Positions 4,608-52,674 of a stretch of 55,544 nt of DNA are shown here, piece after piece; position 1 is the first letter of the stretch, and the number at the start of each line of letters is the position of its first letter. The notes under the pieces are model-generated. The model was not told where the DNA came from. It worked only from the letters and a program-made list of their open reading frames with translations, and did no database searches. The stretch is from a virus (Duplodnaviria; Caudoviricetes): IMG/VR virus record IMGVR_UViG_3300012667_000989, positions 1 to 55,544 of that record. One strand, written 5' to 3'. A program made the position numbers and the translations under genes.

Positions 4608-4621
4608 ATAATAAGTGGTGT

Positions 4622-4659
4622 TTATTAACTTAAAGTTAATAAGAACTAATATTAATTGC
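4622..4659. promoter_or_regulatory. Palindromic operator between divergent terL and tail operon
   Basis: TTATTAACTTAAAGTTAATAA; 34/38 identical to 50292-50329. Confidence 0.7.
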
Positions 4660-4742
4660 AACTTGTTTTTTTATAAGTTTAATAACCTTCAAGGTATCAT
4701 CACTACCTAGTTTTTAGTTCACCACACTAAACAAAATAGAAA

Positions 4743-4952: not shown

Positions 4953-4954
4953 TT

Positions 4955-6493
4955 ATGGCTGGCACTTATCCTATTTCAGAATTTAACTTAGTTTCATCAT
5001 TGCAAAAAATTGATGCTGGAGCAAGAATCCCTTTAATTTTAGCGCAAGGAACCTCTGCTGGTTCTTTTACAAGCGGTAATTTGGTTTCAAATATTGGAAC
5101 TGATATTAACGCAGGTAAAGACCTTTGCGGAGCTGGTTCAATTGGTCATTTAATGATTGATGCTTTTAGACAAGCAAGCCCTAATACAAGACTAGACGCA
5201 ATTATTGTTTCTGACAATGGTTCTGGTGTTCAAGCTACTGGTTCGGTTGCTTTTACAGCCTCAAGCCCTGTTGCTGGTACTTTATATGTAACTGTTGGTT
5301 CTTATACTAAAAATAGATATGCAATTGCAGTAACAACCGCCTCAACAGCAACAACTATTGGTGATGATTTAGAAGCTGCTATTAATGCTGATGATAATTC
5401 ACCAGTAACAGCTTCAAATACAACTGGAACAGTTACTTTTACCGCTAAAAATGATGGAACAGAAGGTAATAGAATTTCAATTAAAGTTGAATCTTTACCA
5501 AGTGGAGTTGCTGCAACAATAACAGCTTTTACAAGTGGCGCAACTGATCCTGTTTTGACTGGTATTTTAACTAAAATTGATGCTGCAAGATATGATATTA
5601 TTTTCCCAGTATGTTTCTTATCGACTGTTAAAACTCACTTAGAAGCTAAATTTAACACTAGAAACGCTATTTTAGATGGTGTTGGTATAGTTTGTAAAAC
5701 TGATACTTACGCTAACCATGTAACCGCTTTAGCTCCTGCAACACTAGCTTCAAAAGTAATTACTCCTTACATCTGCTTAAAATTAGTGAATGATTCTGAT
5801 TGGAAAGGAAACGAAATTGTTGAATTAGATTATGTTTTGCCAGCTTATTCTGCTGGCTTGAGAGCGCAAAGACTAAAAGAAAATGCTTCTATTAGTCCAT
5901 TCATGATGAGCAATAACAACAGAGGTGGTTTATTTACTGCTGGCTTGCCTTATGCTAACATGAAGCTTAATGATCTTAACACGATTGCAACTGGAAAAGG
6001 ATTCACTTTAACTGAAATTGAAGGTTTAGGTGATTTAGGTGGTTCAACTTTAAGCATGGATGAAAGTGGAACTGTTGCAGTTACTAATAAATTTTGGACA
6101 ACTGCTTACAAACAAGCAACTCCAACTGCTGATGGTTACACTTACCAAACTTTGAATAAGTCTGATTGTGCAACTATTGCTAGAGAGTATATCTTCAAAA
6201 ATATGAAGAATTTTTATGCTCAATCTGGTTTAACAGAAGGTACTTTACCAAACAATCCATTAGCAACTTATGCTAACGAAAAATCAATTAGAGCTTATAT
6301 TGTAAGTCTTTGGTTAGATTTGACTGACTTCCCTTATAATGTGCTTCAATATTCAGCAGAACTTGAAACTGAATTTAAAACAAACCTAAGCGTTGTAGTT
6401 AATACTTCAACTGGAGCAGTTACTGGTTCAATGAAATTTAACTTAATGGGTCAATTAGATTCATTTACTTTTGATTTAACACCACAATTATAA
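4955..6493 (+). CDS. Contractile tail sheath (Mu gpL-like)
   Basis: GAGSIGHLM, ATGSVAF, PVTA..TGTVTFTAKNDG.EGN, GATDP motifs; 512 aa. Confidence 0.92.
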   Translation: MAGTYPISEFNLVSSLQKIDAGARIPLILAQGTSAGSFTSGNLVSNIGTDINAGKDLCGAGSIGHLMIDAFRQASPNTRLDAIIVSDNGSGVQATGSVAFTASSPVAGTLYVTVGSYTKNRYAIAVTTASTATTIGDDLEAAINADDNSPVTASNTTGTVTFTAKNDGTEGNRISIKVESLPSGVAATITAFTSGATDPVLTGILTKIDAARYDIIFPVCFLSTVKTHLEAKFNTRNAILDGVGIVCKTDTYANHVTALAPATLASKVITPYICLKLVNDSDWKGNEIVELDYVLPAYSAGLRAQRLKENASISPFMMSNNNRGGLFTAGLPYANMKLNDLNTIATGKGFTLTEIEGLGDLGGSTLSMDESGTVAVTNKFWTTAYKQATPTADGYTYQTLNKSDCATIAREYIFKNMKNFYAQSGLTEGTLPNNPLATYANEKSIRAYIVSLWLDLTDFPYNVLQYSAELETEFKTNLSVVVNTSTGAVTGSMKFNLMGQLDSFTFDLTPQL

Positions 6494-6499
6494 TAAAAT

Positions 6500-6907: not shown

Positions 6908-6909
6908 TT

Positions 6910-10260: not shown

Positions 10261-11654
10261 TGGCTTTTGAAGATAATATAACAATAGATATAGCGGGAGT
10301 TAGCTTTAAAACCTTTAAATCCGTTTCGGTCAATGAAAGCTTAGATTTCTTTGGAAAGACTTTTAATATTGACATCAATATTCCAACTCAAGATGCCGAT
10401 ATTTTTTACGAAGGGCAGGGAATTAAACTTTATTTAGATGATGAGCCTTTTTTAACTGGTTATATTGATGAGGTAGATATTGATTATTCTGTTGGCTCTT
10501 GCGACATAAGATTTTCTGGTAGAGATAAAGTTTCTGATTTAATTGATAGCCGAATATCAAACAAAGTTTTTGCAACACCTACAACCTTTGAGAATGTTTT
10601 AAAAAAAGTTTTAGAAGCTGTTGGTTACGAGGTTTTAAGTGCTACAAAAATAGGAACTTCAATTTCTAAAATAGAAATACCTTCGAGCCTAACATCTTTA
10701 GCAAGCAAATTCAACATTCCGACCTCTTTTGAAGAAGGTTTAGCTTTAGCGGAAAATCAAATTGCGGTTATTAATGAATATGGATATATAGAGCCATTTT
10801 CTAATTCTGAAGGAATTGGATTTAGTAAAGATGAAAGTGCTTACGAGTTAATTCAAAGACTAGCTGACAAAAGAAGACTGGTATTAGGCACTGATGGCAA
10901 TGGAAACATTATCATTAGAAAAATAGGCAACAAGCAAGCTCTTGTAAAATTACAAAACTTGACTGAACTTAATAAAAAAAGTGGATTACTTGGTGGATTA
11001 CTTGAGAGCGGAGCTTCTGCAACAGTAGATACATCTCAAAATAACATAAAAGATGCTTCTATTAAAAGGGATTTAAAAAATAGATATTATGAATACAAAA
11101 TAGTTTCAAGTTTAACTGGAACTAATCCAGATGGTAAAGATTGGAAAGCTGTAATGGATAATTTAAAAAATAATACAGTTCAATATAGCGGTGTTTTTTA
11201 CGATAAATCAGTAAGAAAAACAAGAAAGTTTGTTGATTATGTAGCTAACCTAAACAACTCTCAATGTAAAGAAAGAGCTGAATGGGAATGCAATATTAGA
11301 TATTCTAAATCCCATGTTTATTCTTGCAGCGTAGTTGGTTGGAGACAAGGATTAAGACCTATTACTTTTAAATCTTTAGCAACGGCATTAAGCAGCCCTT
11401 CTAACTTTCTCAAGCCTCAAAAAAACGAGCCTTGGCAAGCAAATCAATTAGTACAGATAACTGATAACTTGGCTCAAGTAGATGATAATCTTCTGATAAA
11501 AGATATTACTTACAATCTAAGCAAAGAGTCTGGCTCTTATGTTAGATTGAGTCTGGTTGATAAATTGTCTTATACTAATTCTGTATTTGAGCCAAAAATT
11601 AAAAAACCAAGAAAAAAATCAAATTCAGTAATAAAAGGATTAGGGTTGGAATGA
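10260..11654 (+). CDS. Baseplate hub (Mu gp44/gpP-like)
   Basis: LTGYID...SGRDKVSDLIDS; RAEWE; PWQANQLV.I.D. Confidence 0.9.
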   Translation: MAFEDNITIDIAGVSFKTFKSVSVNESLDFFGKTFNIDINIPTQDADIFYEGQGIKLYLDDEPFLTGYIDEVDIDYSVGSCDIRFSGRDKVSDLIDSRISNKVFATPTTFENVLKKVLEAVGYEVLSATKIGTSISKIEIPSSLTSLASKFNIPTSFEEGLALAENQIAVINEYGYIEPFSNSEGIGFSKDESAYELIQRLADKRRLVLGTDGNGNIIIRKIGNKQALVKLQNLTELNKKSGLLGGLLESGASATVDTSQNNIKDASIKRDLKNRYYEYKIVSSLTGTNPDGKDWKAVMDNLKNNTVQYSGVFYDKSVRKTRKFVDYVANLNNSQCKERAEWECNIRYSKSHVYSCSVVGWRQGLRPITFKSLATALSSPSNFLKPQKNEPWQANQLVQITDNLAQVDDNLLIKDITYNLSKESGSYVRLSLVDKLSYTNSVFEPKIKKPRKKSNSVIKGLGLE

Positions 11655-12175
11655 TTAGAATAGCAGAAATAAAACAATTAGAATATGTTGGGCAACTTGG
11701 TAGAATAAGAGTTCAGTTTAAAGACCCAGCTTCAACCAATGTTGAAAACGGAGTTTTAATTCTACCAACTGGTGATAATGTTTGCCCTTCTGTTGGTGAT
11801 TCTTGTTATGTTTTATGTGTTGGCGATGAATATGGAATAAATTATGTAATACCTTATGATGTTGATAGCGCACCTAAAATTCTTGAAGGTGAAAAGATTA
11901 TTTATGGAAAAAAGCAAAACCAAATTTATTTCAAACAAGATGGCTCAATAAGTATTACAACCTCTGATAGCAAGCAAATTGATATTACTGCACAAGGTGG
12001 AGTTAATATTACTGGAGCGGTAAATATTACTGGGAATGTTGCAATTACTGGGAACCTAAGTGTTAGCGGAACTTCTAACTTACAAGGCACAACTACTATT
12101 GAAACCAAGCCATTTATTACTCACACTCATAGTGGAGTAATAGTTGGCGTTGGTAATACTGGAGCAGTAGTCTAA
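11651..12175 (+). CDS. Baseplate spike (Mu gp45/gpV-like)
   Basis: GEKIIY, V.ITG beta-helix repeats, C-terminal HTH iron-binding tip (THTHSGV). Confidence 0.9.
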   Translation: MIRIAEIKQLEYVGQLGRIRVQFKDPASTNVENGVLILPTGDNVCPSVGDSCYVLCVGDEYGINYVIPYDVDSAPKILEGEKIIYGKKQNQIYFKQDGSISITTSDSKQIDITAQGGVNITGAVNITGNVAITGNLSVSGTSNLQGTTTIETKPFITHTHSGVIVGVGNTGAVV

Positions 12176-12251
12176 TGATTAGGAAACCAAAAGGTACCAC
12201 ACCCGCAAACCTAACCATTAGACCAATAAAAATTTATAAACAATATTAACT

Positions 12252-12704
12252 ATGTCAATAAAAGATTTAAAATTAATAAAAAATTCTGATGGGATATTTG
12301 ACATTTCTTTTGAGAATGGGGACTTTGCTTTAACAGGCGGTCTTGAGACTTCTTTTATGATGACAATTTATTGCCAAAAAAGAGAGGATTCAATTGAAGA
12401 CCCTCGTTCTCGTGGAGGTTGGATTGGCAACGAGTTAAACGAAGACGGATTTGAACAAGGCTCTTTAGTTTGGACGCTTTATCAAGAAAAATTAGATGAT
12501 GATACTGTTAATATTTGCCAGAATTATTTAGAAGATGCTTTTCAATGGTATATTGACAAAGGAATTGCAAAAGAAATTGATATTATTGTTGAAAAAGATA
12601 TTGACTTAGAAAAATTAACAGCAACAATTACCGCAATAAGGAATGATAATACTGAATTTGTGCAGTATTATGATTTATGGATAAACACAATTAATGCAAG
12701 CTAA
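12252..12704 (+). CDS. Baseplate protein (Mu gp46-like)
   Basis: RGGWIGN...GSLVWTL...EDAFQWYIDKGIA. Confidence 0.9.
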   Translation: MSIKDLKLIKNSDGIFDISFENGDFALTGGLETSFMMTIYCQKREDSIEDPRSRGGWIGNELNEDGFEQGSLVWTLYQEKLDDDTVNICQNYLEDAFQWYIDKGIAKEIDIIVEKDIDLEKLTATITAIRNDNTEFVQYYDLWINTINAS

Positions 12705-12715
12705 CACCACGGCTA

Positions 12716-14257
12716 ATGACATTAAACCTACCCTCTGATAGAAAAGAGGTATATAACAGGATTGTTTCAGATGTAACCGCACAGTTGCCAGACAGTGGGG
12801 CGTTTTTGCCTACCTCTTATTTAGGTTCTTTAATTAAAGGTTTAGCTTACAGAGTTTATGACAATTATCAGAAGATTCTGATAATGATTAATCAATTCTT
12901 TGTAAATACCGCAACTGGTGTTTATTTAGAAAGATGGGGCAATACTTACGGAATTACAAGAACTGTTGCAACCTCTGCCACAGGAAATGTTGTTTTTTCA
13001 GGAACTGCTGCAACTTCTGTCCCCTCTGCCACAAGCCTTCAAAGCGCATCTGGAATAACTTACACAACGCAATCTACTTCAACTATTTCATTAAACAGCG
13101 TTTCAGTTTCTTCAATGTCAAGAACTGGAACTTTAGTAACTGTTAATTTTACTGCTGAACATAATTTAGCAAGTGGAATCGCCGTTACAATTACTGGCGC
13201 AAGCCCTTCTGACTTCAATGCTTCAAATGTTATAATTACTGTAACTTCTACTACGCAATTTCAATTTACACAAGCTGGAACTGCTGGAAGCGCAAGTGGC
13301 ACAATTATTGCTGAATGGACTACCGCAAGTGTAGCTGTAACTGCAAGCTCTCAAGGGCAAAATACCAATATTACTTCTGGTGGAATTTTAACATTAGGAA
13401 GCCCTATTGTTGGCGTTAATAATAATGCTTTTGTTGATTTCAATGAGTTATCCGGTGGTACTGATATTGAAGGAGACGCTTCTTATCGCTCAAGAGTTTT
13501 ATTTAGAATACAATTCCCTTTTTCATTCTTCAATACAAGCGCATTAATTAATCAAGCAAAATTAATTGCTGGCGTAACTAGAGTTTGGATATTTTCACCA
13601 AGCACCACATCTGCCTCAATTTCTATTTCAAACCTTGTAAGAGCTGGACAAATTGCAACTGCTACTTCAACCGCTCATGGCTTAGTAAGTGGATCTTATG
13701 TTACTGTTACTGGTGCGGTTCAAAGTGAGTATAATGTTATTGAAGAAAGAGTTATTGTAATTGATGCAAACACTTTTGCCTATCCTGTAAGTGGAAGCCC
13801 AACAACCCCTGCAACTGGCACAATTTCAGCAGCTTATTCTTATGTTGAAGAAGGACAAGTTAGAATTGGTTTCACAAGAGATAATGATGCTTCAATTATT
13901 CCAAGCTCAACAGAAGTAAATACTGTAAAAGATAAAATATTAGAGATTAAACCAGCTCATATGAGTGATGATGATGTTATTGTTTTTGCTCCAACTGCTG
14001 TATCTATCCCAGTTACTTTTTCAAGTTTAAGCCCTAACACAACCGCAATGCAAACAGCTATTACAAGCTCTTTGACTGACTTCTTTAAGCTATCAAACAA
14101 CATTGGTGAGAATGTTAAATTAGCTGATATAAACGCTGTTATTTCTCAAACAATTGATTCAAGTGGAAGTGTGCCAATTTATACTTTATCTGCACCAAGT
14201 GCGGACACTACGATTGGTTTAAATGAAATTGGAACTTTGGGGGTGATTACTTATTAA
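12716..14257 (+). CDS. Baseplate wedge J (Mu gp47-like) with two FCCH-like inserts
   Basis: TATGVYLERWG..YGITR..AT.ATG.V; GGTDIE.D..YR.R; GVTRVWI. Confidence 0.92.
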   Translation: MTLNLPSDRKEVYNRIVSDVTAQLPDSGAFLPTSYLGSLIKGLAYRVYDNYQKILIMINQFFVNTATGVYLERWGNTYGITRTVATSATGNVVFSGTAATSVPSATSLQSASGITYTTQSTSTISLNSVSVSSMSRTGTLVTVNFTAEHNLASGIAVTITGASPSDFNASNVIITVTSTTQFQFTQAGTAGSASGTIIAEWTTASVAVTASSQGQNTNITSGGILTLGSPIVGVNNNAFVDFNELSGGTDIEGDASYRSRVLFRIQFPFSFFNTSALINQAKLIAGVTRVWIFSPSTTSASISISNLVRAGQIATATSTAHGLVSGSYVTVTGAVQSEYNVIEERVIVIDANTFAYPVSGSPTTPATGTISAAYSYVEEGQVRIGFTRDNDASIIPSSTEVNTVKDKILEIKPAHMSDDDVIVFAPTAVSIPVTFSSLSPNTTAMQTAITSSLTDFFKLSNNIGENVKLADINAVISQTIDSSGSVPIYTLSAPSADTTIGLNEIGTLGVITY

Positions 14258-41537: not shown

Positions 41538-42876
41538 TTAATTGTTGATAATTTCTTTTTCTTGCCCAAACTTTCCGCTTGCTGCATGCAATTGCATAAT
41601 CTTTTCTTGCTTCAATTCTTTTTGAAATTGATTGTTGATAATTTTAATTTTTCTTTTTTCTTCGTTTTTGGTTCCAAACCAAAAACAGTCCCAGACTAAA
41701 TAAATCTTATTTTCTTCATCAAAGCCGAAAATTTCCGCACAAGCTAAAATATCATCATTGTAACCTGTCATAAATTGAATTTTGTCACCAGCTTTCAAGT
41801 TTTCGTTTGAGAGTTTTAGATTGTGCTTTTCCGCAAATTCCGCACATTTAGCTTTTAAAGCTTCATAATTATCTTTTTTTGTTAAATCCCACATTTTTTT
41901 TCCCCTGTTTTTTAATTGTTATTTAGATTTTTTTGAAAAGACTTTGAAGCTAAAAGTTGTTTGATCGCAATAATAATCAGATTTACCTTTTTCAATACAA
42001 TCAATTTCTCTTTGTATATCTGATTGCGTGCCTTCACTATAGCATTGATCTAAATCACAATTTGCAATTCTTATTAGTTCGTTTCGAGCTTCAATAAAAG
42101 CTTCTTTTTTATCACTGCCGCTAAAAATTTCATGTGAAAATTTTTCTGATTGACCAGCTTTTTGTTTAAAAATTTTAATTGTAAATTCTTTTTCCATTTT
42201 TTCCTTGTTTTTAATTTTTAATAATTAACCAATAATTTCTATCTTTTTGATTTTTATAATAGTTCCATTTTTGCCCACATTATTACCAAATTCATCAACA
42301 AATTGAACATTGCGCACAAAATCCCCAACCTTAATTTCTGGCAATTCAATTGCTGTAATAGTGCCCTCTTTTAGATTTTTTAATGATACTGTGTATTTAA
42401 CGATTTGATTTTGATAGTTTGTCATAATTTTTAAATTTAATTGTTATTTAGTTAGAGATTTTCTTTATAAATTTTAACTTCTTCTAATTTCATTTTGTTG
42501 CATAAATCCTTAATTTTATTAAATTCTAATAGCTCGCCATTTTTCTTATATGCTTCAACTGCAATCTTTTTAGTGTTGCAATATAGAATTTGACAAATTC
42601 CCGTTGCTCTTGCGTGTAATTCTAGCCACCATTTACCAGCAATTTTCTCAACTGCCAAAATATAATCTTGATTTTCTTTTAAAATTTCTTTCATAAGTTT
42701 TTAGTTAATTGTTATTATTTTTGAATTTTCCAAACAATTTTAGAGCCGTGAAAAATCACTAGATCGTTATTTTTAAAACTGTAATTGTTTTTATTTTCTT
42801 CTAAAGCTTGTCTATTTTCAAAACTAAACCAGCTTTTGTTGTCAACATTAGTTATTTTTGATTTTACTAAAACCAT
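41538..42876 (-). CDS. Early small hypothetical genes (41538-41894, 41919-42197, 42225-42425, 42452-42694, 42715-42876)
   Basis: Co-oriented, similar AT-rich leaders; the last (53 aa) found manually. Confidence 0.6.
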
Positions 42877-42930
42877 TTTAATTACTTTTTAAGTTATCAT
42901 TCCCAAAACTCATTTCGTTTTGTTGAGATC

Positions 42931-42959
42931 ATTATGCGCCATTACTTTTATTAATGCAA
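42931..42959 (-). promoter_or_regulatory. Leftward early promoter
   Basis: TTGCAT-N17-CATAAT. Confidence 0.65.
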
Positions 42960-43327
42960 CTATTTATTTAATCTTTTTTATAATTATTTAATTAAGTTAT
43001 AAATAGTGTGTCAAAATGAAACAAAAGAGGAGTGGAGGCAATGGAATCAAGGGTTTGAATTGTGTCAATAAAAAAGTGATTAAATATTAATAAAAGTTTA
43101 AATTAGATTAAATTTGTGTCAAATTGAGATGAAAAGAAGGGAAATTGATTTTAAGGGGTTTACAGCGTAGTAAAAAAAATATAGAGAATCACAAGCAAAG
43201 AAAAAAATAGAGGGCTTAAAACGCAAGAAAAGTTGTCAATAAAAATCAACATTGAAAAAGAAAGTGTATCAAATTGAAACTAGATGAAAGATTGAATAAA
43301 TAATTTAATAAATAGTTAATAAATTGT

Positions 43328-43355
43328 TTGACATAGTAAAATTTGAGGCTATATT
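43328..43355 (+). promoter_or_regulatory. Rightward promoter
   Basis: TTGACA-N16-TATATT, preceded by TTAA-N7-TTAA at 43305-43319. Confidence 0.65.
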
Positions 43356-43402
43356 TAACTTATCACTTTTGGAAGTGAGATAACAATTAAAATTAAAGAA
43401 TT

Positions 43403-43708
43403 ATGAAAATCGAAACATCATCTTACGGCAAGATTGCCACAACTTCAATTGAAGTGAAAACTGGTTTTGAAGTGGAAGCTTTAACAATGAAAAGATACAG
43501 CGGTAATCTAGTCACAACTTTCACACTTTTTAAAAAGATAAGTGAGAATTGCAAACAAACTTGTGTTAATTTTAAAAATTCATCAGTTGATCATGGAAAG
43601 CAAAGAATAACAGAAAAGAATTTAACAAAATTTCACAATGAAGCACTTGAAAGATTAGGTGATTTTAAAGAGCATTTTGAGAAAGAAATTATTAACTTTA
43701 ATCAGTAA
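43403..43708 (+). CDS. hypothetical protein
   Basis: 101 aa downstream of the promoter. Confidence 0.65.
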   Translation: MKIETSSYGKIATTSIEVKTGFEVEALTMKRYSGNLVTTFTLFKKISENCKQTCVNFKNSSVDHGKQRITEKNLTKFHNEALERLGDFKEHFEKEIINFNQ

Positions 43709-43712
43709 AATT

Positions 43713-43856
43713 ATGAAAAAATATTTTAAACTAGAAAATTCAAAATGGATTTTACTTAATTCAACTGAACTTTTCAAGATTCTAATGAGTAAAAAAGTTA
43801 GAACGGTTAAGATTTATAATGATGATCTGGAATTTGAAGGGATAGGAATTTATTAA
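43713..43856 (+). CDS. hypothetical protein (47 aa)
   Basis: ATG 43713 just after the upstream stop. Confidence 0.5.
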   Translation: MKKYFKLENSKWILLNSTELFKILMSKKVRTVKIYNDDLEFEGIGIY

Positions 43857-43877
43857 AAAAGACAAAGCAAAGAATCC

Positions 43878-43916
43878 AAAAGCTCGCTAACTGTAAAAAG
43901 TAGTGGGCTTTTTTTT
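43878..43916 (+). terminator. Rho-independent terminator
   Basis: AAAGCTCGCTA...TAGTGGGCTTT followed by a T run. Confidence 0.8.
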
Positions 43917-44021
43917 GTTGCTTTTTATTTACTTTTAGTTAATAAATAAATCACTGATTGCTTGATTTAAAAGGCAAGAGGAATTGTAAGTTTAATAGTA
44001 ATAATTTGGGAGTGTATCAAA

Positions 44022-44660
44022 ATGGCAATAAGACCAGCGGCGGCATTGAGGGAGAGAGAGGCGAAAGTTGCAGCGGCGGAATTGGGAAATTTTAAGAGTT
44101 TGGCACAGAAAGAAGCGTTGGTGAAGAAACAAAAATCAGGAAATAAAGGAAGGCAGATTAAAGGCGAGATGAAAAGAAAAAAGATCGTGAAGGAATTTTT
44201 AAAAAGTCAAAGCTTAGAAAGTGCAGCTAAAAGCGTGGGAATTTCTATGACACAGGCTTCACGCTATTTGAATAGTGGTGAAAGTGCAAAATCATTGGCT
44301 GAAGCCTTCGAAAAAGCAGGTCTTGGAAAAGAAGAAATTGCACGAATTGCAAAGGATGAATTTCTTAACTATAACAAAGAAAAAGTTGTAAGATCTTACG
44401 GCGAAGGAATGAACGCAAGAGAAGTTGAAGAGATGCGAGACGGTCGATTAGCTTTTAACTCATTACAATTTGCAGCTAAGTATATTGAAGCTGACGCTAA
44501 CACAATAGCAACGGCGGGAGCTGGTGAAGTATCAAGCGAAATTGCAATGCTAGCAATCAAGAATCTGATTCAAAAGCTGGATGAAAAACAATTGCGAGTT
44601 GTGAAAGAATCAATCGAAGTTTTACTTGAGAAGAATTTAAAAGTAGTGGCTGGAGCTTAG
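44022..44660 (+). CDS. terS: Probable terminase small subunit
   Basis: HTH (SLESAAKSVGISMTQASRYL), helical middle, RDGRLAFNSLQFAAK; lies upstream of the portal. Confidence 0.6.
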   Translation: MAIRPAAALREREAKVAAAELGNFKSLAQKEALVKKQKSGNKGRQIKGEMKRKKIVKEFLKSQSLESAAKSVGISMTQASRYLNSGESAKSLAEAFEKAGLGKEEIARIAKDEFLNYNKEKVVRSYGEGMNAREVEEMRDGRLAFNSLQFAAKYIEADANTIATAGAGEVSSEIAMLAIKNLIQKLDEKQLRVVKESIEVLLEKNLKVVAGA

Positions 44661-45151
44661 AGAGAGTAAGGAATGGGCGGTAGTGGTTAGAAATAGATGG
44701 ATGGAGGATTAAGGGGGGTATTGTTGAGAAATAGACGACCCCCACCCCTCCTAGTTTGAATACCCACCCCACACATTCCTAAAATATTTTCACAATCTAA
44801 GAAAATGACTCTAAACATTCCCAACAAAACAATCATAAACCCTCTTTTTAGCCTCACACAACACTTTTCTGCTAATAAATACACAATCTACCATTAAACA
44901 TTTCTAAAACCCTTTCTACCCCCCTCTTTTTCTAAAACTGATTTTTCTTTTTTTTTATTTCCTAAAATCCATTTTAGAGTTTTCTAAAATTTTTCCATTT
45001 AAACCTTTTTTATAATGTAATAAGAAAATGTATTGAATCTGGTTTTTGTCCGAGTTTGTTGAAAGTACGATAATAACACATATAAAATATAGATAGGAAA
45101 TGGATTTTGAAAAAAAGCTGGAATCCTTACTCTCTGTGGTTATTTCAGCCC

Positions 45152-45252
45152 GTGAAACATTTTTGACTTATATATCCCCAATATATAACTATTATACTGT
45201 GGATATATAAGTTGTATACTGTGGATATACAAGTGTGAATGTTTCACATATA
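45152..45252. repeat. Iteron cluster (candidate RepL origin)
   Basis: TATACTGTGGATATAYAAGT x2 (45193-45212, 45215-45234), inverted partial copy 45166-45180, flanking GTGAAACAT/ATGTTTCAC. Confidence 0.7.
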
Positions 45253-45328
45253 TAAGACTTGATTTTAAGTTTTTGGTTTGTATGGTAATTTGTGTTAATT
45301 GTTATTAATTTTTTTAGTATAGGCAATA

Positions 45329-45805
45329 ATGATAAATTTAAAACTGGCAGAATACAAAGATGGGAAGTTTGAGAGATTTTTGGAACTTGGTAAGGATTTC
45401 GGGTATTTTGAAGATTTTATTTCTGTTGCCAGTGATTGTTCTTTGGCAGAAAATTTGCTAATAGAAACAGACGAATGGGCACTTGCCAGTAGAACTGTAA
45501 TAAGGTTCCGTAAAGACGAAAAAGACCCCCTAAGTCGTTTTGATGGTTTGTTTGATGACAGGACTTATGGAGAGGGTAGGTTTGTTTTGATAGAGGGATT
45601 TAAATTTAAAGAAAAAATAATCTGGGAAGATGATGTTTTAGGTTTTTATAATGAATTAATCAAATTTAAAAAAGATTTTGTTATGTCAAATTGCGGACAT
45701 GGAGAGCAATCTAGCATGAACCGAATAGGATTCTACTTTTGTAATACCGATACTTCTTTTAAAGGAAACCTTCATAAAAACCCAGAACTTTTTTTAGGAA
45801 TATAA
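45329..45805 (+). CDS. Divergent YopX-like protein
   Basis: IWEDDVL ... GNLHKNPEL C-terminus. Confidence 0.55.
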   Translation: MINLKLAEYKDGKFERFLELGKDFGYFEDFISVASDCSLAENLLIETDEWALASRTVIRFRKDEKDPLSRFDGLFDDRTYGEGRFVLIEGFKFKEKIIWEDDVLGFYNELIKFKKDFVMSNCGHGEQSSMNRIGFYFCNTDTSFKGNLHKNPELFLGI

Positions 45806-46263
45806 TGGCTCGTAAAATCAAAAACCAAACAATTACCAATTTTATTGATGAATTTGGAGAAGTTCACCAAAAAGAGAGTTTCCAGAGTTATTCAATTGCT
45901 GGTGAAGATGATTATATTAAAATCTACATTAAACACATAAACTACTTATCAAATCTGCCTTCTGGTTTGGAAGGGTTGATTTATGAGTTAATTAAGTGTA
46001 TGAGTTATGGAAATAAAATTATAATTAACTCTTACATCAAAAGAGATATTGCCGTTAGACTTGGAAAAACCTTTAATACTGTAAATCAATACATCACAAA
46101 GCTATCTGAAAGCAAAATCCTTATTCGTGAAGGAAGAGGCGTTTATTATCTTAATCCTGCTTTTTATGGAAAAGGAAAATGGAAGGATATTTTAGAGCTA
46201 AGAGAGAAATTAGAAGTAAAAGTAAGTTATGAAGATGGAATTTATAAAATAACCCATAAATAA
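45805..46263 (+). CDS. repL: RepL-family replication/maintenance HTH protein
   Basis: YIKIY, IA..LG.T..TV...I..L....IL....RGVYYLNP.F..KG. Confidence 0.75.
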   Translation: MARKIKNQTITNFIDEFGEVHQKESFQSYSIAGEDDYIKIYIKHINYLSNLPSGLEGLIYELIKCMSYGNKIIINSYIKRDIAVRLGKTFNTVNQYITKLSESKILIREGRGVYYLNPAFYGKGKWKDILELREKLEVKVSYEDGIYKITHK

Positions 46264-46327
46264 CTTCTTGCTAATTAAATGCCTGTGATTAGTTTTTAAT
46301 GGATTATTACTCACCACATAATAAAAC

Positions 46328-47845
46328 ATGGCTTTTGAAAACTTTAAAAGGAAGATAGCTCTAAATTACTTAGAGAAGAAGGGAAGTGCTTATAGTCCTC
46401 TATTGTTTAACTTTCTTACCAATGATTTTTCTTTTGGTACTACCTCTGGCAAATATTTAGAATATTACTGCCAAGTTGCTCCTGTTGGAGACGCAATCAA
46501 TAAAATAGCTAATGAAACCGCTTGTGTTTCTCTTTTTCCTTACGCCAAATCTGAAAAGGAATCAAGAATAGCTCTACCGAATAGCCCTTTTGTCAAAACT
46601 TTCCGCAAACCTAATTTTAAGCAAACTGGGATAGATTTTAAGCAAGAGGGTTTTATACACTACTTAGCCACTGGAAATAATTATATTTATCTTTCTGGTG
46701 TGCTAAGTGCTGATAAGAGAAGTGTTTATCAAAGTCCGCTAGAAGTCTATAATCTACGCCCTGATTACATTACGCCAGTTCAAGATATGTCTGGTTATCC
46801 AGAATATTACCTTTATAATCCGAATGGAAAGCAGAAATGTTTCCGCAAAAGATACATAAATAACATAAATGGGCAATTAATTGAAGCCTATGTCGAAGAT
46901 GAAGGTTTTGGCGTACTATTGCATTGGAAAGAGCCTTCCAATAACCAACTGTTCTCAATGCTTTATGGTGATTCACCTTTACAGAATGTAGAAATTGAGA
47001 TTAACCAATATTTAGAAGCTTCAATACATAATGCGAACCTTTTGAAGAATGGTTTATCTTCTAAGATGTTATTTAGCCCTAAAGATGGATCAAATCCACC
47101 AAATCAAGACCAATTAGACAAAATAAGAGATTATTTGAAAAGTGCTTACTCTGGCTTTAACAATGCAGGCAAGAATCTACTTATTGGAATGCCTTTTGAT
47201 GTTAAGCCTTTGGATATAAACCTCAAAGATATGGATTTTGAGAAGCTGATGCGAAGAATGAGGGTGGCAATTTACAATAAAATGAATATTCCGCTTCCTA
47301 TGGTTGAAGGTGAGTTCACCTCAAATACAAACATGAAAGAGGCTAACCTAAACTTTTACGACAAAGCTGTTCTGCCGCTTCTTGCTAAATACTGCGAATA
47401 CTATTACTGCTTTGTTTATTCTAATTTTTACCGAGATGATGGTGTTTTTGAGATAGGTTTTGAAGAATCTTCAATTCCCGCATTACAACCTCGCTTATTT
47501 GAAACAGTGCAAGTTTTACAAAAAGCTAAAATAGCTACTTCAAACGAACTAAGAGAATTTGTTGGCTTAGGACGCTGCGGAATTGGTGGAGATGCTCTTT
47601 ATGTTGACGGAAATCAAGTTGCTGTTGCTGGTGATGAAAATATGAGTGATACAATTGGTGTTCCTGCTGGAATGGTTAATATGCCTGATGAAGAGGAAGG
47701 AGAGTTGGACGAAGAAGAGGAGGAAACTGAATTTGAAGAAGAAGGTAAAAGCATTTTAAAGAAACTCTTAGTAAAAACTCTTGATATTAAAGGAAATAGG
47801 GTTTATTCTGATGAGGAAGTGGAGAAGTTAGTTGCTGGTGAATAG
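46328..47845 (+). CDS. Portal protein (HK97 family)
   Basis: LATGNNY, LRPD, YGDSPL, G..NAGK, KDMDF, T.NE.R..VGL. Confidence 0.94.
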   Translation: MAFENFKRKIALNYLEKKGSAYSPLLFNFLTNDFSFGTTSGKYLEYYCQVAPVGDAINKIANETACVSLFPYAKSEKESRIALPNSPFVKTFRKPNFKQTGIDFKQEGFIHYLATGNNYIYLSGVLSADKRSVYQSPLEVYNLRPDYITPVQDMSGYPEYYLYNPNGKQKCFRKRYINNINGQLIEAYVEDEGFGVLLHWKEPSNNQLFSMLYGDSPLQNVEIEINQYLEASIHNANLLKNGLSSKMLFSPKDGSNPPNQDQLDKIRDYLKSAYSGFNNAGKNLLIGMPFDVKPLDINLKDMDFEKLMRRMRVAIYNKMNIPLPMVEGEFTSNTNMKEANLNFYDKAVLPLLAKYCEYYYCFVYSNFYRDDGVFEIGFEESSIPALQPRLFETVQVLQKAKIATSNELREFVGLGRCGIGGDALYVDGNQVAVAGDENMSDTIGVPAGMVNMPDEEEGELDEEEEETEFEEEGKSILKKLLVKTLDIKGNRVYSDEEVEKLVAGE

Positions 47846-47880
47846 TGTCATTGCTAATTAACTTCTTTCTTTAAGAATAA

Positions 47881-48019
47881 ATTCGAGTGGTGGAATGGTA
47901 AACACAATCAGAGCGGCTAGAAATAGCAATGCGAGCGTATCCTGAATTGACAGGAAGTTCTTGTATGTGAGATAGGGGTGTTTAATATCTCCTTTGTGGG
48001 TTCGAGTCCTACCTCAGAA
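47881..48019 (+). ncRNA. tRNA-like RNA C with about 90-nt multi-hairpin insert
   Basis: TG-GTG GAATGGTAAA CAC D arm; GTGGG TTCGAGT CCTAC T arm; bulged TTCGAG/CTCAGAA acceptor; TTGCTA..AAGAAT promoter-like site at 47851-47878. Confidence 0.72.
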
Positions 48020-48043
48020 AACACATACCTTAATTTATCACTT

Positions 48044-48322
48044 ATGGCAGAAATTATTAATTTAGCGGAATATCGCAAAAAGAAAGAGCGAGAAAAATAT
48101 ATTACAAACTGCCAGACAAGAATTGCGGTTTCAGATATTAGTTTTTCTAGTTTAAACGAAATCGAACAAAGACTAATTGACCACTTTATAAAGGAGGGAG
48201 AGTCTAAGATGTTGATTCTTGATGATCCAATAAGTTGTGGCTATGTACCAGATGAGAATTTCTTAAAAGAATATTCAAAAAATTTTAAATACAGAATAGA
48301 CTTTGGTAATGAATCTTCGTGA
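48044..48322 (+). CDS. hypothetical protein
   Basis: MAEIINLAEYRKKK start at ATG 48044 (the upstream GTG lies inside the RNA). Confidence 0.6.
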   Translation: MAEIINLAEYRKKKEREKYITNCQTRIAVSDISFSSLNEIEQRLIDHFIKEGESKMLILDDPISCGYVPDENFLKEYSKNFKYRIDFGNESS

Positions 48323-49223
48323 AATTGACATTGAAAAAAGAAAAATAGAAAGCCGATACATAAAACCTATCCGCTCTATTTTTTGTCAAATGAACCAAGA
48401 TGCTATTAATCTTTACAAAGCAACTAAATCTGTAAACGCTGAATCGGTTGCTAGAAACTGCACCCCAGACTTTTTAAAAGTTTGCAAAGACTGCCTAAGA
48501 GAAACAATTCAGACTTTTGGCTATTTGGAACGCAAGCCAAGTAAAAAAGCCATAGATGTTGAAATAGACCAAGATCAACTAGAAAACATCAATAAAGAGT
48601 TTGAAAGACTTGCTATTCTCTTTATAGCAACTGAAAGCGAGAGACAAGCTCTTTATATTCAAAACACCAACGCAAAAGAATTATCAGAAGCCCAAATCAA
48701 TGCTTTAACTAAGCACATCAGAAAAGAAGCTAGATTGCAGACGGCTATCCAAGAATTAGAGCAAAGAATAATGCAAATTCGCTTTCAAGGATTTATTCAA
48801 GGAAAAGAAACTGATTTAAGCAAATTAGATGCAAGATTGGCTAAATACAAAAAAGAACTAACTGCCTTACAAAAAACCAAAGATAATGCAGTTGCGGAAG
48901 AGATAAACATTGCTTTAGACAAGAAAGAAGAGTCAAGAGCAGAGCTAATTGCTGAAACTTTGGTCGGAAGTGCTGAAAGCTGGTCAAGACAAGAAGAGGT
49001 AACTTTGATTGCCTTAAATCTTGGAGTACAGATAAAAAAAGCTTGGCGTGGAATTTTAGATGGAAGTATTAGACCAACTCATTTAGCTGCAAACGGGCAA
49101 ACAGTTCCTTTAAATCAGAACTTTGTTGTTGGTGGTTATTTAGCACAAAGACCAAGAGATTCTAAACTTCCTGCTTCTGAAAGTTTAAAATGCCGTTGTT
49201 ATGTTGAATATTCTAGGGTTTAA
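48309..49223 (+). CDS. Head morphogenesis protein (SPP1 gp7 / Mu gpF-like)
   Basis: RAELIAET, KKAW....D..IRPTH..ANGQ, PRD..LP.SE..KCRC. Confidence 0.88.
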   Translation: MNLREIDIEKRKIESRYIKPIRSIFCQMNQDAINLYKATKSVNAESVARNCTPDFLKVCKDCLRETIQTFGYLERKPSKKAIDVEIDQDQLENINKEFERLAILFIATESERQALYIQNTNAKELSEAQINALTKHIRKEARLQTAIQELEQRIMQIRFQGFIQGKETDLSKLDARLAKYKKELTALQKTKDNAVAEEINIALDKKEESRAELIAETLVGSAESWSRQEEVTLIALNLGVQIKKAWRGILDGSIRPTHLAANGQTVPLNQNFVVGGYLAQRPRDSKLPASESLKCRCYVEYSRV

Positions 49224-49231
49224 TAATAAAC

Positions 49232-49368
49232 CAGACATTGAGGAGATTAGAGTTAAAAATCGAAAAGCACCGTTTAATTCCTCGAAAACTCTAAGCATCT
49301 CCCCCCTCTTTCGACCCGCTGTCTGTTGTCGGCTCTTCTTATGATCGAGGCAGTGCGTTCTTTTAACT
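49232..49368. ncRNA. Structured intergenic element between convergent genes
   Basis: Two competing sets of long stems. Confidence 0.4.
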
Positions 49369-49380
49369 TTCGTTATTCTT

Positions 49381-50285
49381 TTAGGTAAAATCCCTTAATT
49401 TGTAATTGCTAGTAAGATATTCGCATAGTTCGTCATAAGCTTTATCTCTAGCTTCTTCTGTTTCATAAAAAAACTGCTGAATCCTAATGTTGTCTTTACT
49501 CCTCATAAATATAGCAGGACTGAATTTTATTGATGCAAGTTCATTTTCTGACAATGACATTGCAGAACTATATTCAAGATTGTTGATAGTTTTAATCTCA
49601 TTTTTTTCAATTCTTTTAATTTCCTCTAAAGCGATCAGACAATCATTAATAGCAGTTGAGCTTCTTATAAACATATTATTATTCCTTAATTAATATTTTT
49701 TCCAATAAAATTCTAAATTTTGAATAATTATTTTCAAGACACCATTTCCAAATTGAATTCTTGTATTTATTTCTATTTAAAATAAAATGATTAGCATGTT
49801 TAGATTTATATTTCTTCCCACATTTAGTACATTCTTGCCAAGTTTTAGCCGAATCTCCTTGCCATTTTCTAATTCCATTATCTTTTGAACACATAACGCT
49901 TAGGCACATAAAATGCCCACAACTTTGAAAACTAAGTTTATCAATTAACTTATGATTGCAATCAATGTTCTGCAGAATCCATTTCTGTAAAATTCTCATT
50001 TTAAAAATTATATTATTTTTTTAGCAATTCATCAAGTTGTTTCTCTAAATTATCTCTATCTTCCTGTAATTCTTTTACTTCCTCTAAAAGGTCGGCAACA
50101 ACATAAAAAACTTTTCTTAAATCATTTTTTTCATAAAGTTTTATCCAATATGTTTCGCCATAGCCAAGATAATCTCTAAAAAAAGATTCCTTAGTTGGCT
50201 CTTTCATTTTTCCTTGGTCAACTAAATTAGAATAAAATTCTTTTATTCTAATCAAATATTGATATGTTTTTGAAGTTCCGCGCAT
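49381..50285 (-). CDS. Three-gene reverse-strand insert (49381-49674; 49679-49999 zinc protein; 50013-50285 possible regulator)
   Basis: Packed operon opposite to the head genes. Confidence 0.6.
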
Positions 50286-50291
50286 AAATAA

Positions 50292-50329
50292 TTATTAACT
50301 TAAAGTTAATAAAGATTATTATTAATTGC
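50292..50329. promoter_or_regulatory. Palindromic operator between divergent insert and protease gene
   Basis: TTATTAACTTAAAGTTAATAA, near-copy of 4622-4659. Confidence 0.7.
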
Positions 50330-50383
50330 TTTTTATTAAGCAATAACATTTATTGAAAATAATTATTAACCATAATCACCACT

Positions 50384-51493
50384 ATGGAATTAAGCTACAA
50401 GCAATTTACATTAGAAGTAAAAAATCTTAAAGAAGATGGCTCTTTCGAGGGCTATGTTGCTGCCTTTAATAATATTGACTTTGGCAATGACATCTTAGAT
50501 CCAAAAGCTTTCCAAGAAGAACCTGCTGGGAAATATTACCCACTACTTGCTGACCACGATACAAAAAAGCCAATTGGTAAATTCCAAATAGAATTTGATA
50601 ACTATGGTGTAAAATTCAAAAACGCTAGGTTTAACTTAATGCGTGATGAAAAAACTGGTAACTTCTTAGTTCCTTACGCCGCAGAAAAATATGCTAACCT
50701 TAAAAATGGCGATATTTCTGGATTCTCAATGGGCTATATGACTAGGTCAGATGATTGCGAGCTTAAAACAGTTGAAGGCAAAAGATGCAGAGTAATTAAT
50801 AAAGCTCAATTAATGGAAGGATCAGTTGTTACCTTTCCGATGAATGACAAAGCAAGACTTACTGGAATTAAAACTGTCAATCCAACAACTAATTTCCCTT
50901 TTGCTAATAGAAATTATGAGTGGGATTCTTCAAGTGCTGAAAAGAGAATAAGAGAATATACAGAAAGTGAAAACGAACCTGCTGCCTCTTATAACAGATA
51001 CTTTATGTATTTTGATAATGGTCGCTCAAAGTTCTTTGATGCCTACAAGCTACCTTTCGTAGATATTATTGACGGTGAGCCTCATATTGTCCCAAGAGCT
51101 ATTTTTGCTATTGCTGGAGTTTTGGAAGGCGCAAGAGAAGGTGTAAATATTCCTGAAGCAGACAAAGCTAAAATCAAAGAAATTATCAACAACATATATA
51201 TTGCAATGGCAAAAGAGTTTAATGACCCTTCTTTAGAAAGTCCTTTAAAAGGCAAGAGCCTTGACGAAGTTTCTTCTATTAAAGAAGTGGAATCTATTTT
51301 GAAAGAAAGCGGTTTTTCTAATAAAGAAGCAAAGACGCTTATTTCAAAAGTAAAAGAATTTTCTAATCAAGTTCAATGTGATGTTGAAAATGAGAAGACA
51401 ATGCAATTGTTGCGTGATGCAACAGAACAAATGAAGTTTAATAACTTTTTAACATCGCTTAATAGCGAAAATATTTTTAACAAACAATCGTAA
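50384..51493 (+). CDS. HK97-type prohead protease with C-terminal extra domain
   Basis: FEGYVAAFNNID.G.D, LADHD, GFSMGY, EGSVVTFPMN..AR; extension WD...A...YKLPFVDIIDG. Confidence 0.93.
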   Translation: MELSYKQFTLEVKNLKEDGSFEGYVAAFNNIDFGNDILDPKAFQEEPAGKYYPLLADHDTKKPIGKFQIEFDNYGVKFKNARFNLMRDEKTGNFLVPYAAEKYANLKNGDISGFSMGYMTRSDDCELKTVEGKRCRVINKAQLMEGSVVTFPMNDKARLTGIKTVNPTTNFPFANRNYEWDSSSAEKRIREYTESENEPAASYNRYFMYFDNGRSKFFDAYKLPFVDIIDGEPHIVPRAIFAIAGVLEGAREGVNIPEADKAKIKEIINNIYIAMAKEFNDPSLESPLKGKSLDEVSSIKEVESILKESGFSNKEAKTLISKVKEFSNQVQCDVENEKTMQLLRDATEQMKFNNFLTSLNSENIFNKQS

Positions 51494-51498
51494 ATAAA

Positions 51499-52674
51499 AT
51501 GACAGATTTTACACCACAAAATATGATGGAAGCCGTATCGGCTCTTCAAAAGGCAGTAAAAGAAAATAACGAAGGTGTAGTTACCAAAGTTAGCTCTTTT
51601 ATTGATTCACAAGAAAAAAAGAACCAAGAATTGGTAAAGCAACTTGAAGCTGAAAAAGCTGAAAGACTTAAATTTGCTGACGAAGTAAAAGCCCGTGAAG
51701 CTATTCTTTCTCGTCCAAATTTTGATGTTAAATCAGAAGCAGGAAAAGAAGAAATGAAAGCTTTTGATGCTTTCTTGAGAACTGATATTAAAGGCATGTC
51801 AGAAGCTGAAAGAAAATATCTTCGTACTGATTCTTTAGTTGATGGTGGAGCTTTAGTTCCTGAAGCTTTCTCAACCGATATTACTAAGAAAATCATTGAA
51901 ATTTCTAATTTTAATGGAGTTATTAATTTTATTCGTGTTGGAGCTAAAACAACTAGACTTCCAATCAGAAATACTCTTTTGACTGCTTCAATGGTTGGAG
52001 AAGGTCAATCAGATTCACTTTCTAATTCTAAATATGGCGAACAGCTTTTAACTTTGAAAAAAATGCAAGTTACTGTTCCAGTTACTATTGAAGAGTTAGA
52101 AGATGCTGGAGTTTCTATTGCTGACCAAATTCAACAAGATGTTGCTGAAGCTTTTGCGGTTAAACTTGGTCAACAAATTGTTCAAGGTACTGCTGCTCCT
52201 ACACAACTTCAAGGCTACATGGCTTCTGGTGTTGTAACTCAAGAAATCAATTCTGGAATTGCAGATGCAATTACTTGGAAATCAATGACTCTTTTAACTG
52301 GTCAATTAAAAACTGGTTATAATCCTATCTATGGTTTCAACCGCTTAACTCGCGCTACTTTGTTAGCTCAAGAAGATGGTGTTGGTCGTCCACTATGGCA
52401 ACCTGGTAATCTAGCTGCTGGTATTCCAAATACTATTAACGGCTATGCTTACCTAGAAATACCTGATATGGCTGATATTGGTGCTGGTAACTATCCAGTA
52501 GTTTTTGCTGACTTCGCAAGAGGTTATGCCGCTGGTAATGGTATCGACATGAGAGTTATTAGAGACGAAGTTTCTCGTAAAAGAGAAGGCATTGTTGAAT
52601 ATACCTTTATGAGAAGAGTTGCTGGTTTAGTTAAGCTTCCTGAAGCTTTTGCTAAATTAAAAATTTCTGCTTAA
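51499..52674 (+). CDS. Major capsid protein (HK97 fold)
   Basis: Coiled-coil delta domain, DGGALVPE, DG.GRPLWQP, FADFARGY. Confidence 0.95.
   Translation: MTDFTPQNMMEAVSALQKAVKENNEGVVTKVSSFIDSQEKKNQELVKQLEAEKAERLKFADEVKAREAILSRPNFDVKSEAGKEEMKAFDAFLRTDIKGMSEAERKYLRTDSLVDGGALVPEAFSTDITKKIIEISNFNGVINFIRVGAKTTRLPIRNTLLTASMVGEGQSDSLSNSKYGEQLLTLKKMQVTVPVTIEELEDAGVSIADQIQQDVAEAFAVKLGQQIVQGTAAPTQLQGYMASGVVTQEINSGIADAITWKSMTLLTGQLKTGYNPIYGFNRLTRATLLAQEDGVGRPLWQPGNLAAGIPNTINGYAYLEIPDMADIGAGNYPVVFADFARGYAAGNGIDMRVIRDEVSRKREGIVEYTFMRRVAGLVKLPEAFAKLKISA

Follow-up and report, generated by a model that had tools for sequence, protein, structure and literature searches.

CACCAC-loop hairpins at the starts of late genes in an uncultured tailed phage: candidate RNA operators for translation

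Results

The stretch of DNA analysed here, called the window throughout, is the complete 55,544-bp genome of a tailed phage (Caudoviricetes; IMG/VR record IMGVR_UViG_3300012667_000989) with direct terminal repeats of 55 bp and a G+C content of about 33%. A first reading of its letters, the original prediction, had proposed that the hexamer CACCAC stands in for a Shine-Dalgarno (SD) sequence before late genes, and this motif and the RNA hairpin to which it belongs are the subject of this work. PHROG profiles identify the genes for the large terminase subunit (terL), the portal, the head-maturation protease, the major head protein (capsid), the tail sheath and a baseplate wedge/J protein, whereas Pfam adds DnaB and RecT, both encoded in the minus-strand early block. 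The names that the original prediction had given to the portal, protease, terL and baseplate J genes were thus upheld; its 'tube' (135 amino acids, aa) and 'first tail gene' (69 aa) have no family match in the PHROG profile scan, and these two labels are positional only. The latter is a conserved 69-aa open reading frame (ORF, 4743-4952) that lies ahead of the sheath gene and heads the sheath/tube operon. Gene starts were taken from a crude longest-ORF caller; for terL, this mechanical call begins at TTG 4661, and the true start is likely ATG 4607 instead.

The six copies of CACCAC described for the portal, protease, terL, 69-aa, putative tube and baseplate J genes are all present, 1-17 nucleotides (nt) 5' of an ATG. 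Moreover, a seventh copy that had not been reported is found inside the capsid gene (codons 5-7), with an in-frame ATG 5 nt further downstream, so that the gaps between motif and ATG at the seven start sites are 1, 5, 5, 7, 10, 14 and 17 nt. Counting both strands, the window contains 24 copies as compared to 6.6 expected, a number reached in none of 100 shuffles. Many of the antisense copies belong to coding runs of GGT (glycine) repeats. On the sense strand, seven of the nine copies are found at a start, the other two (13603 and 31460) are internal, and none of the early-gene starts carries the motif. The over-representation in leaders that the original prediction had put up for checking is real: 6 of the 104 called ORFs have CACCAC within the 25 nt before their start (binomial p = 7.8e-6, tested against the genome frequency), and it is the sole hexamer enriched before starts that is neither A/T-only nor SD-like.

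CACCAC is, however, not a linear SD substitute but the constant 3' part of a hairpin loop. This loop of 7-9 nt has the consensus U-C-A-Y-C-A-C and is closed by a stem of 4-7 bp whose sequence is not conserved and is different at each site. The window contains eight such hairpins, all on the sense strand of late (virion or packaging) genes. They serve terL, the 69-aa leader gene of the tail operon (two copies), the putative tube, baseplate J, portal, protease and capsid genes:

4609..4627, minus strand: terL hairpin, TAATAA-acaccac-TTATTA, 1 nt before ATG 4607; CACCAC at 4620-4615, gap to the ATG 7 nt
4692..4708, plus strand: distal hairpin of the tail-operon leader, AGGTA-tcatcac-TACCT, a CAUCAC loop variant detected by the descriptor scan
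4713..4731, plus strand: proximal hairpin of the tail-operon leader, TTTAGT-tcaccac-ACTAAA, 11 nt before ATG 4743 of the 69-aa ORF; CACCAC at 4720-4725, gap 17 nt
6472..6490, plus strand: tube hairpin, TGATT-taacaccac-AATTA, within the last sheath codons and 9 nt before ATG 6500 of the ORF after the sheath gene (putative tube); CACCAC at 6480-6485, gap 14 nt
12699..12714, plus strand: baseplate J hairpin, AGCT-aacaccac-GGCT, in an 11-nt spacer and 1 nt before ATG 12716; CACCAC at 12705-12710, gap 5 nt
46304..46324, plus strand: portal hairpin, TTATTA-ctcaccaca-TAATAA, 3 nt before ATG 46328; CACCAC at 46312-46317, gap 10 nt
50370..50387, plus strand: protease hairpin, CCATA-atcaccac-TATGG, with ATG 50384 inside the 3' arm; CACCAC at 50377-50382, gap 1 nt
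51506..51522, plus strand: capsid hairpin, ATTTT-acaccac-AAAAT, in codons 3-8 of the frame opened by ATG 51499 and abutting the in-frame ATGs 51523/51526; CACCAC at 51512-51517

Seven of the eight hairpins lie inside the translation-initiation region. Relative to the ATG, their 3' ends are found between 11 nt upstream and 4 nt inside; the capsid hairpin spans codons 3-8. At the 69-aa ORF the distal CAUCAC hairpin ends 4 nt upstream of the proximal one. The calculated stability of the stems is low, 0 to -2.8 kcal/mol.

The evidence for the structure is comparative and computational. All seven start-site copies of CACCAC are flanked by complementary arms of 4-6 bp, and their mean stem score of 5.14, as compared to 1.84 for 1571 control positions in late leaders, was reached in none of 200,000 resamples; for the remaining 17 copies in the window the mean is 1.56. 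A descriptor of the hairpin has 11 matches in the window but 2.8 +/- 1.7 in 100 shuffles. When the window was scanned with a covariance model of the hairpin family (R1), the first match outside the training set was the CAUCAC hairpin (4691-4709), and no other convincing copy was detected. Among seven genomes, a stem of at least 4 bp is present at 19 of 29 distinct start-proximal sense copies as compared to 7 of 68 copies elsewhere (Fisher p = 7e-8), and at least three of these seven are leader sites misfiled by the crude start calls. In an alignment of 30 distinct rows, 69.4% of the cells are paired versus 38.9 +/- 3.5% in shuffles, and the covariation score is 0.672 versus 0.193 (0 of 500 shuffles in either case); slid registers give 32-48% pairing, and six of the six pairs vary on both sides. 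Some of these rows are orthologues, which makes the shuffle control generous, whereas the resampling within the genome is free of this weakness.

No Rfam family reached its gathering score anywhere in the window, and E-value scans of 4000-13000, 42600-50400 and 50200-51700 returned sub-threshold unrelated matches only. One sub-threshold match, to a microRNA precursor family, lies at 4435-4521 on the minus strand inside terL (30.6 bits as compared to a gathering score of 52.2, E = 0.0019) and is most likely a chance hairpin within coding sequence.

Relatives were drawn from IMG/VR by searches with the capsid, sheath, baseplate J, portal and 69-aa proteins, and seven larger records (G000, G001 and G003-G007) were scanned whole. 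As the original prediction had asked, the element was traced in related phages: it is kept in relatives down to about 58-70% protein identity, with the stems swapped and the loop constant. The family includes the loop variants CAUCAC, CACCAU and UACCAC, and across genomes the 3' end of the hairpin mostly lies between 4 nt inside the ATG and 17 nt upstream of it. The tail-operon leader illustrates the exchange of stems best: the distal site of relatives has a CACCAC loop on the stems GGTA/TACC, AACA/TGTT or AGAGTT/AACTCT, and the proximal site has GGCAAT/ATTGCC, GGCAGT/ACTGCC, GTTAGC/GCTAAC, GGCAA/TTGCC or CATAGT/GCTATG. The terL hairpin reads GTTAATAA-tcaccac-TTATTAAT in G003, a near-identical relative of the window, and no CACCAC hairpin was found in the terL leader of G001. 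For baseplate J we found TTGCG-tcaccac-CGCAA in G006, GCT-tcaccac-AGC in G001 and, with the stem read by eye, TTGCA/TGCAA around the loop tcacgc in L090. The portal leader of G001 has CTTTATT-tcaccat-AATAAAG (by eye), and the protease hairpin is CCATA-ttcaccact-TATGG in G001 and TCATAA-tcaccac-TTATGG in G004. The AUG lies within the stem at the protease gene of G000, G001, G003 and G004 and at the 69-aa gene of G007. Elements are also gained and lost: G001 has an additional 7-bp hairpin before the sheath gene, G006 has two more that follow its baseplate J site at a distance of about 3.7-4.6 kb, and the tube hairpin has been lost in L059 and L060. In relatives at 39-47% capsid identity the leaders are A/T-only, with neither an SD nor CACCAC.

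The tube hairpin is identical in G001 although the proteins are only 45-78% identical, and the capsid hairpin of G001 has a 7-bp stem, AGATTTT-tcaccac-AAAATCT. In the window, these two hairpin regions (6473-6490 and 51505-51522) have a longer identical stretch in common, GATTT-N-ACACCACAA, which codes for D-L/F-T-P-Q at the C-terminus of the sheath and at the N-terminus of the capsid protein. The N-terminal capsid peptide is kept at the protein level in a 36% relative. In the capsid gene (51499-51528 region), the in-frame ATGs 51523 and 51526 follow directly 3' of the hairpin; in G001 a CTG replaces the first of the two, making the stem longer.

The contrast in SD usage that the original prediction had drawn between early and late genes holds. 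SD-like tetramers at positions -20 to -4 precede 27 of 47 early minus-strand genes (6 of 47 in a mock window) and 7 of 33 late plus-strand genes (3 of 33), and by eye there is none in the leaders of the hairpin-bearing genes. The early genes of the window (21311-42876, minus strand) have strong G-rich SDs, whereas G001 (L014-L016), at 81% capsid identity, shows only the background level, with 4 of 37 early-like and 3 of 32 late-like leaders as compared to 5 of 37 and 3 of 32 in the mock windows. In G002, a relative at 36%, SDs occur throughout (53 of 70). Since G001 is at background level and the relatives at 39-47% capsid identity have A/T-only leaders, the lineage evidently translates without SDs. 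The window and G001 have almost no early genes in common, and the contrast between the two implies that closely related virion modules have been joined to early modules with the opposite style of translation initiation.

The motif had also been said to resemble the anti-SD rather than its complement, and this likeness is genuine: UCACCAC agrees with UCACCUC of the Escherichia coli 16S tail at 6 of 7 positions. The E. coli 16S ribosomal RNA (rRNA) ends with ...GGATCACCTCCTTA; CACCAC thus has the same sense as the tail and is not complementary to its CCUCC core. The complement GUGGUG does not occur in the 16S, 23S and 5S rRNAs of E. coli, which are a stand-in and may not match those of the host.

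Upstream of three leaders a promoter-like element, TTGCWA-N16-17-TnnWWT, is found at 4656-4690, at 46268-46303 and on the minus strand at about 4661-4628. It ends about 7 nt before the hairpins and recurs in G001, G004 and L144. The TTGCAA at 4656 is self-complementary and might be shared by the two divergent units. Over the whole genome there is no enrichment of the pattern (12 matches as compared to 13.7 in shuffles), hence its conservation at three leaders is only suggestive. Sigma-70-like sites are at the shuffle level (55 versus 51), and a Bacteroidota-type promoter consensus has 2 matches where 4.4 are expected.

Discussion

The CACCAC hairpins of this phage combine a conserved loop with a stem that is free in sequence, as is characteristic of sites that a specific ligand reads. 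Because the motif keeps to the strand of its gene, with terL as an example, hugs the starts, occurs inside operons and is absent from the early genes, it can be regarded as a sense-strand signal tied to translation initiation. We propose, with a probability of roughly 0.45, that the hairpins are RNA operators for a sequence-specific factor that gates the translation initiation of virion genes, probably by repression. According to this proposal, which is built on sequence comparison, the hairpins would act as operators within the late messenger RNAs (mRNAs): A sequence-specific factor, most likely a phage or host protein, would read the loop and clamp the stem, and the bound hairpin would control the access of the 30S subunit to the starts of the terminase, portal, protease/scaffold, capsid, tail-operon leader, tube and baseplate J genes. 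Repression or timing is more likely than activation since several stems include the AUG or stop within 0-4 nt of it, so that a stabilised hairpin would occlude the start. The weakness of the stems (see above) implies that a bound factor could switch them, as expected for a site that requires a ligand.

The original prediction had envisaged either the target of a translational activator or repressor or an element of late transcription. Of these, the translational alternative is supported by a motif that is strand-specific, tied to starts, conserved and presented in a loop, whereas a late promoter of the -10 type is not. A late promoter made of a -10 element only was tried and rejected: the motif lies only 1 nt from the ATG of the protease gene and 5 nt from that of baseplate J, and the profile match of the protease begins at residue 1.

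Several observations weigh against a role of the hairpins as operators. The counts of G-U versus A-C (9 and 13, respectively) do not distinguish an RNA fold from a fold of the non-template DNA strand, and stems of 4-6 bp that are rich in A and U may not fold in vivo. The distance between hairpin and AUG varies among genomes from overlap to 38 nt, which is loose for one geometry, and the genes served, from capsid to terminase, differ widely in the copy number needed. Moreover, the promoter-like elements would bring the tail-leader, portal and terL hairpins to the beginning of the transcript or close to it, a position that would fit a role in stability or transcription as well. Finally, Pfam or PHROG scans of 87 of the ORFs in the window revealed no recognised RNA-binding domain; in particular, KH, S1, CSD, RRM, Hfq and CsrA domains were all absent in the family scans. 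The loop can be read as two overlapping YCAY units, the type of motif bound by some KH domains, and this offers a lead to a binding protein.

Two small proteins of the phage were considered in this context. The 69-aa protein has a predicted small beta-rich fold (pLDDT, the predicted local distance difference test, 79.5), and comparison with the PDB gave no clear match (Foldseek E >=3.4, VIA Z <=3.8). Homologues occur in more distant relatives whose leaders have no hairpin, and this weakly disfavours the protein as the binder. For a 90-aa helical protein (50013-50285, minus strand) the predicted fold gave no clear match either. Its gene co-occurs with the hairpin-bearing genomes. A search of four partial contigs that lack the hairpin did not detect it; these contigs are fragments, and the search had no positive control.

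If the hairpins are operators, the late genes of this lineage, which do not depend on SD pairing, would be coordinated after transcription, and they would form a post-transcriptional regulon whose cis element is compact and easy to test. For tailed phages, the timing of gene expression is mostly attributed to transcription, and known post-transcriptional regulons such as that of T4 RegA concern early genes and unstructured sites. The element also bears on how starts are chosen and tuned on mRNAs without SD sequences, and the lineage offers natural contrasts: one genome with SDs at early and hairpins at late genes, an 81% relative without SDs, and distant relatives with neither. In addition, a 19-nt element could aid in calling the true starts of genes in an uncultured clade, for example at the capsid ATGs 51523/51526.

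It is conceivable, if unlikely, that the ribosome itself recognises the element. The 30S subunit, by its rRNA, S1 or platform proteins, might bind the hairpin or the C/A-rich loop, which would then take the place of the SD on late mRNAs, or enhance initiation there, in a host that seldom relies on SD pairing. The hairpin does occupy the place of the SD at genes that have none, the lineage translates without SDs, and the loop equals the anti-SD strand at 6 of 7 positions. However, the SD-less relatives do without the hairpin, GUGGUG is missing from the stand-in rRNAs of E. coli, and low-copy genes such as terL and portal have the hairpin as well. Furthermore, the spacing is loose, and stems that abut or include the AUG should impede rather than help the binding of the 30S subunit.

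Somewhat less probable still is a role in the processing or stability of mRNA, with the hairpins as cleavage sites of a sequence-specific endoribonuclease before key cistrons of long late transcripts or as protection of 5' ends. Three copies are indeed located at cistron junctions within operons (sheath/tube, before baseplate J, and protease/capsid), the tail-operon leader has two hairpins in tandem, and the conserved promoter-like element would place the tail-leader, portal and terL hairpins at about +1. Yet this promoter pattern is not enriched, a protective hairpin needs no conserved loop, and the stems are very weak. Moreover, no candidate nuclease stands out; SNase-like and RusA-like ORFs are the only nuclease-like ones.

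We give a slightly lower probability again to a signal at the level of transcription. The motif follows the orientation of the gene, at the minus-strand terL as well, four copies fall into the stretch that, judging from the conserved promoter-like elements, would be transcribed first, and the wobble counts are compatible with a DNA fold. This is opposed by the distribution of the sites: there are eight copies per genome, most of them against start codons, three inside operons and one in an 11-nt intercistronic spacer, and gaps of 1-5 nt rule out a -10-like role. In addition, no gene for a sigma factor, an RNA polymerase or a NusG-like protein was detected in the family scans.

The resemblance to the anti-SD leads to an idea that we consider very unlikely, i. 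e. that the loop U-C-A-C-C-A-C mimics the 3' tail of 16S rRNA (...A-U-C-A-C-C-U-C-C...) and, in hosts whose ribosomes bury the anti-SD in a groove of proteins, docks late mRNAs onto the platform proteins or assembly factors by which this tail is normally held, or titrates them. Flavobacterium johnsoniae is an example of such a host, with bS21, bS18 and bS6 holding the anti-SD (PMC7797042). No bS21 gene was found in G000, G001 and G003. If such mimicry occurred, it would constitute an SD-independent, ribosome-directed switch for virion genes, and the SD-rich early genes of this phage would use the complementary state of the ribosome.

Even less can be said for a kissing complex between the CACCAC loops and RNA C, a tRNA-like RNA in which the original prediction had seen a possible partner, and its probability is minimal. 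The complement GAGTGGTG is located at 47885-47892 as had been described, and its GUGGUG lies itself in the loop of a small hairpin (47881-47896, ATTC-gagtggtg-GAAT). Moreover, two further sense-strand hairpins with GUGAUG loops are found at 51372-51388 and 51408-51424 and also in G001, G003 and G004. As a general partner, however, RNA C fails: the GUGGUG-loop hairpin exists only in G000 and G003 and is missing from G001 and G004-G007, which keep the CACCAC hairpins. A set of small-RNA targets with RNA C as the regulator was rejected for the same reason, as the partner is not present wherever the sites are. The complementarity is no longer than 6-7 nt (by eye), and contigs of the runs X4, X19 and X20 omit the region 47832-48324 or stop there. 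As to the GUGAUG loops, they lie in coding sequence, and one of them shifts synonymously from TGT to TGC in G003.

The idea that the hairpins are a functionless by-product of chance or composition starts from the motif being only six bases long and short palindromes being common in A/T-rich leaders, but it can be dismissed in view of the positional enrichment, the stem statistics, the covariation and the conservation beside diverged flanks.

How do the candidate operators compare to known systems? The place of the hairpin relative to the start codon overlaps with that of an SD sequence, but CACCAC resembles the 16S tail instead of complementing it, and it is structured. Lambdoid boxB and the GGA loops of the CsrA type are likewise short hairpins with a conserved loop on a free stem that are read by a small protein. 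CsrA-type sites overlap the initiation regions of many genes, as the hairpins described here do, whereas boxB is a transcriptional element, with one copy per operon close to the promoter. The loop sequences of both are unlike that of the CACCAC hairpins, and the family scans of the window ORFs revealed no N or CsrA homologue. In the coat-protein operators of RNA phages, which are small hairpins as well, the start codon is part of the stem and the loop serves for recognition; the operator of the T4 DNA polymerase also takes the form of a hairpin. A start codon in the stem, as at the protease gene, and a conserved-loop hairpin in the initiation region, here predicted computationally, are what our sites have in common with the coat-protein operators; the latter and the polymerase operator are single sites per genome as compared to eight structured late-gene sites in this phage.

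By analogy, these coat-protein operators and T4 RegA (PMC3014915) may be regarded as the closest mechanistic precedents. RegA competes with the ribosome at about 30 mRNA initiation regions, its sites including part of the AUG or lying immediately upstream (PMC3014915), and the cis sites of the present phage are likewise found there. The sites of RegA are A/U-rich, unstructured and located at early and middle genes (PMC3014915), whereas those described here are C-rich, have covarying stems and belong to late genes.

The nearest described kind of element is the start-associated sequences (SAS/ESAS) of the Cluster K mycobacteriophages (PMC3203893). There, the function of SAS is given as unknown, a role in translation is proposed, and it is left open whether a host or phage RNA or protein binds them (PMC3203893). 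Both elements are short asymmetric motifs in one orientation, a few nt before the starts of a subset of genes; both are conserved across related phages before different gene families and may overlap the stop codon of the upstream gene (PMC3203893). In contrast, SAS is a 13-bp sequence with an SD core and the potential to pair with 16S rRNA, whereas the CACCAC loop has no SD core and the sense of the anti-SD. Furthermore, SAS is restricted to non-structural genes and has little support for a hairpin (PMC3203893), whereas all eight elements of the window are at virion or packaging genes and are hairpin loops with covarying stems. Our literature search, in which supplementary files were not covered, yielded no description of the hairpin element. 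Judged by sequence, covarying hairpins with one loop at late virion starts thus appear to differ from the described SAS and operator sites, while the kind of element itself is known.

Additional observations

No close isolate phage was found in a nucleotide search against isolate phages. With tblastn, terL and capsid have matches below 33% identity only, spread over many host phyla. A scan of genome contigs with terL for a clue to the host gave no match, a second such scan gave a single match, DnaB at 29% identity in a metagenome-assembled genome, and a look-up of the lysozyme in the Atlas returned viral clusters only.

The two GUGAUG hairpins lie in the 3' coding part of the protease gene (plus strand) and read TTCAA-tgtgatg-TTGAA and TGTTG-cgtgatg-CAACA. 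Their loops are complementary to the CAUCAC loop variant, and the copies in G001, G003 and G004 have different stems. Whether they have a role as RNA is uncertain.

The block that contains RNA C (47833-48323) is an insertion/deletion: contigs of other runs, from DNA as well as RNA libraries, connect 47832 straight to 48324, and in the runs X4 (DNA), X19 and X20 eight other letters are found between these positions. The block consists of the tRNA-like region and a 114-aa ORF. ARAGORN calls an 81-nt tRNA-His at 47940-48020, which has no support from Rfam even at E <=1. G001 has genes for tRNA-Thr, tRNA-Phe and tRNA-Met just outside the protease gene on the portal-ward side. Two runs from RNA libraries contain contigs of relatives over the late genes, for which no positions with many starts or ends were reported; contigs as such do not reveal transcript ends.

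A palindrome of 15 bp, TTAACTTAAAGTTAA, occurs in exact form at 4625-4639 and 50295-50309 and as variants at 329-343 and 43928-43942. The exact copies lie in the two divergent control regions, between terL and the tail operon and between the 90-aa gene and the protease gene, and the variants precede the first plus-strand gene and ORF 44022. Loose ends of a DNA contig (run X1, window 50292-50329) connect the protease-side control region to the terL leader. This suggests a different arrangement of the head and packaging modules in some relatives, the junction lying in the palindrome region that both have in common. The palindrome is likely an operator for a dimeric DNA-binding regulator, possibly the product of the neighbouring 90-aa helical ORF (50013-50285, minus strand).

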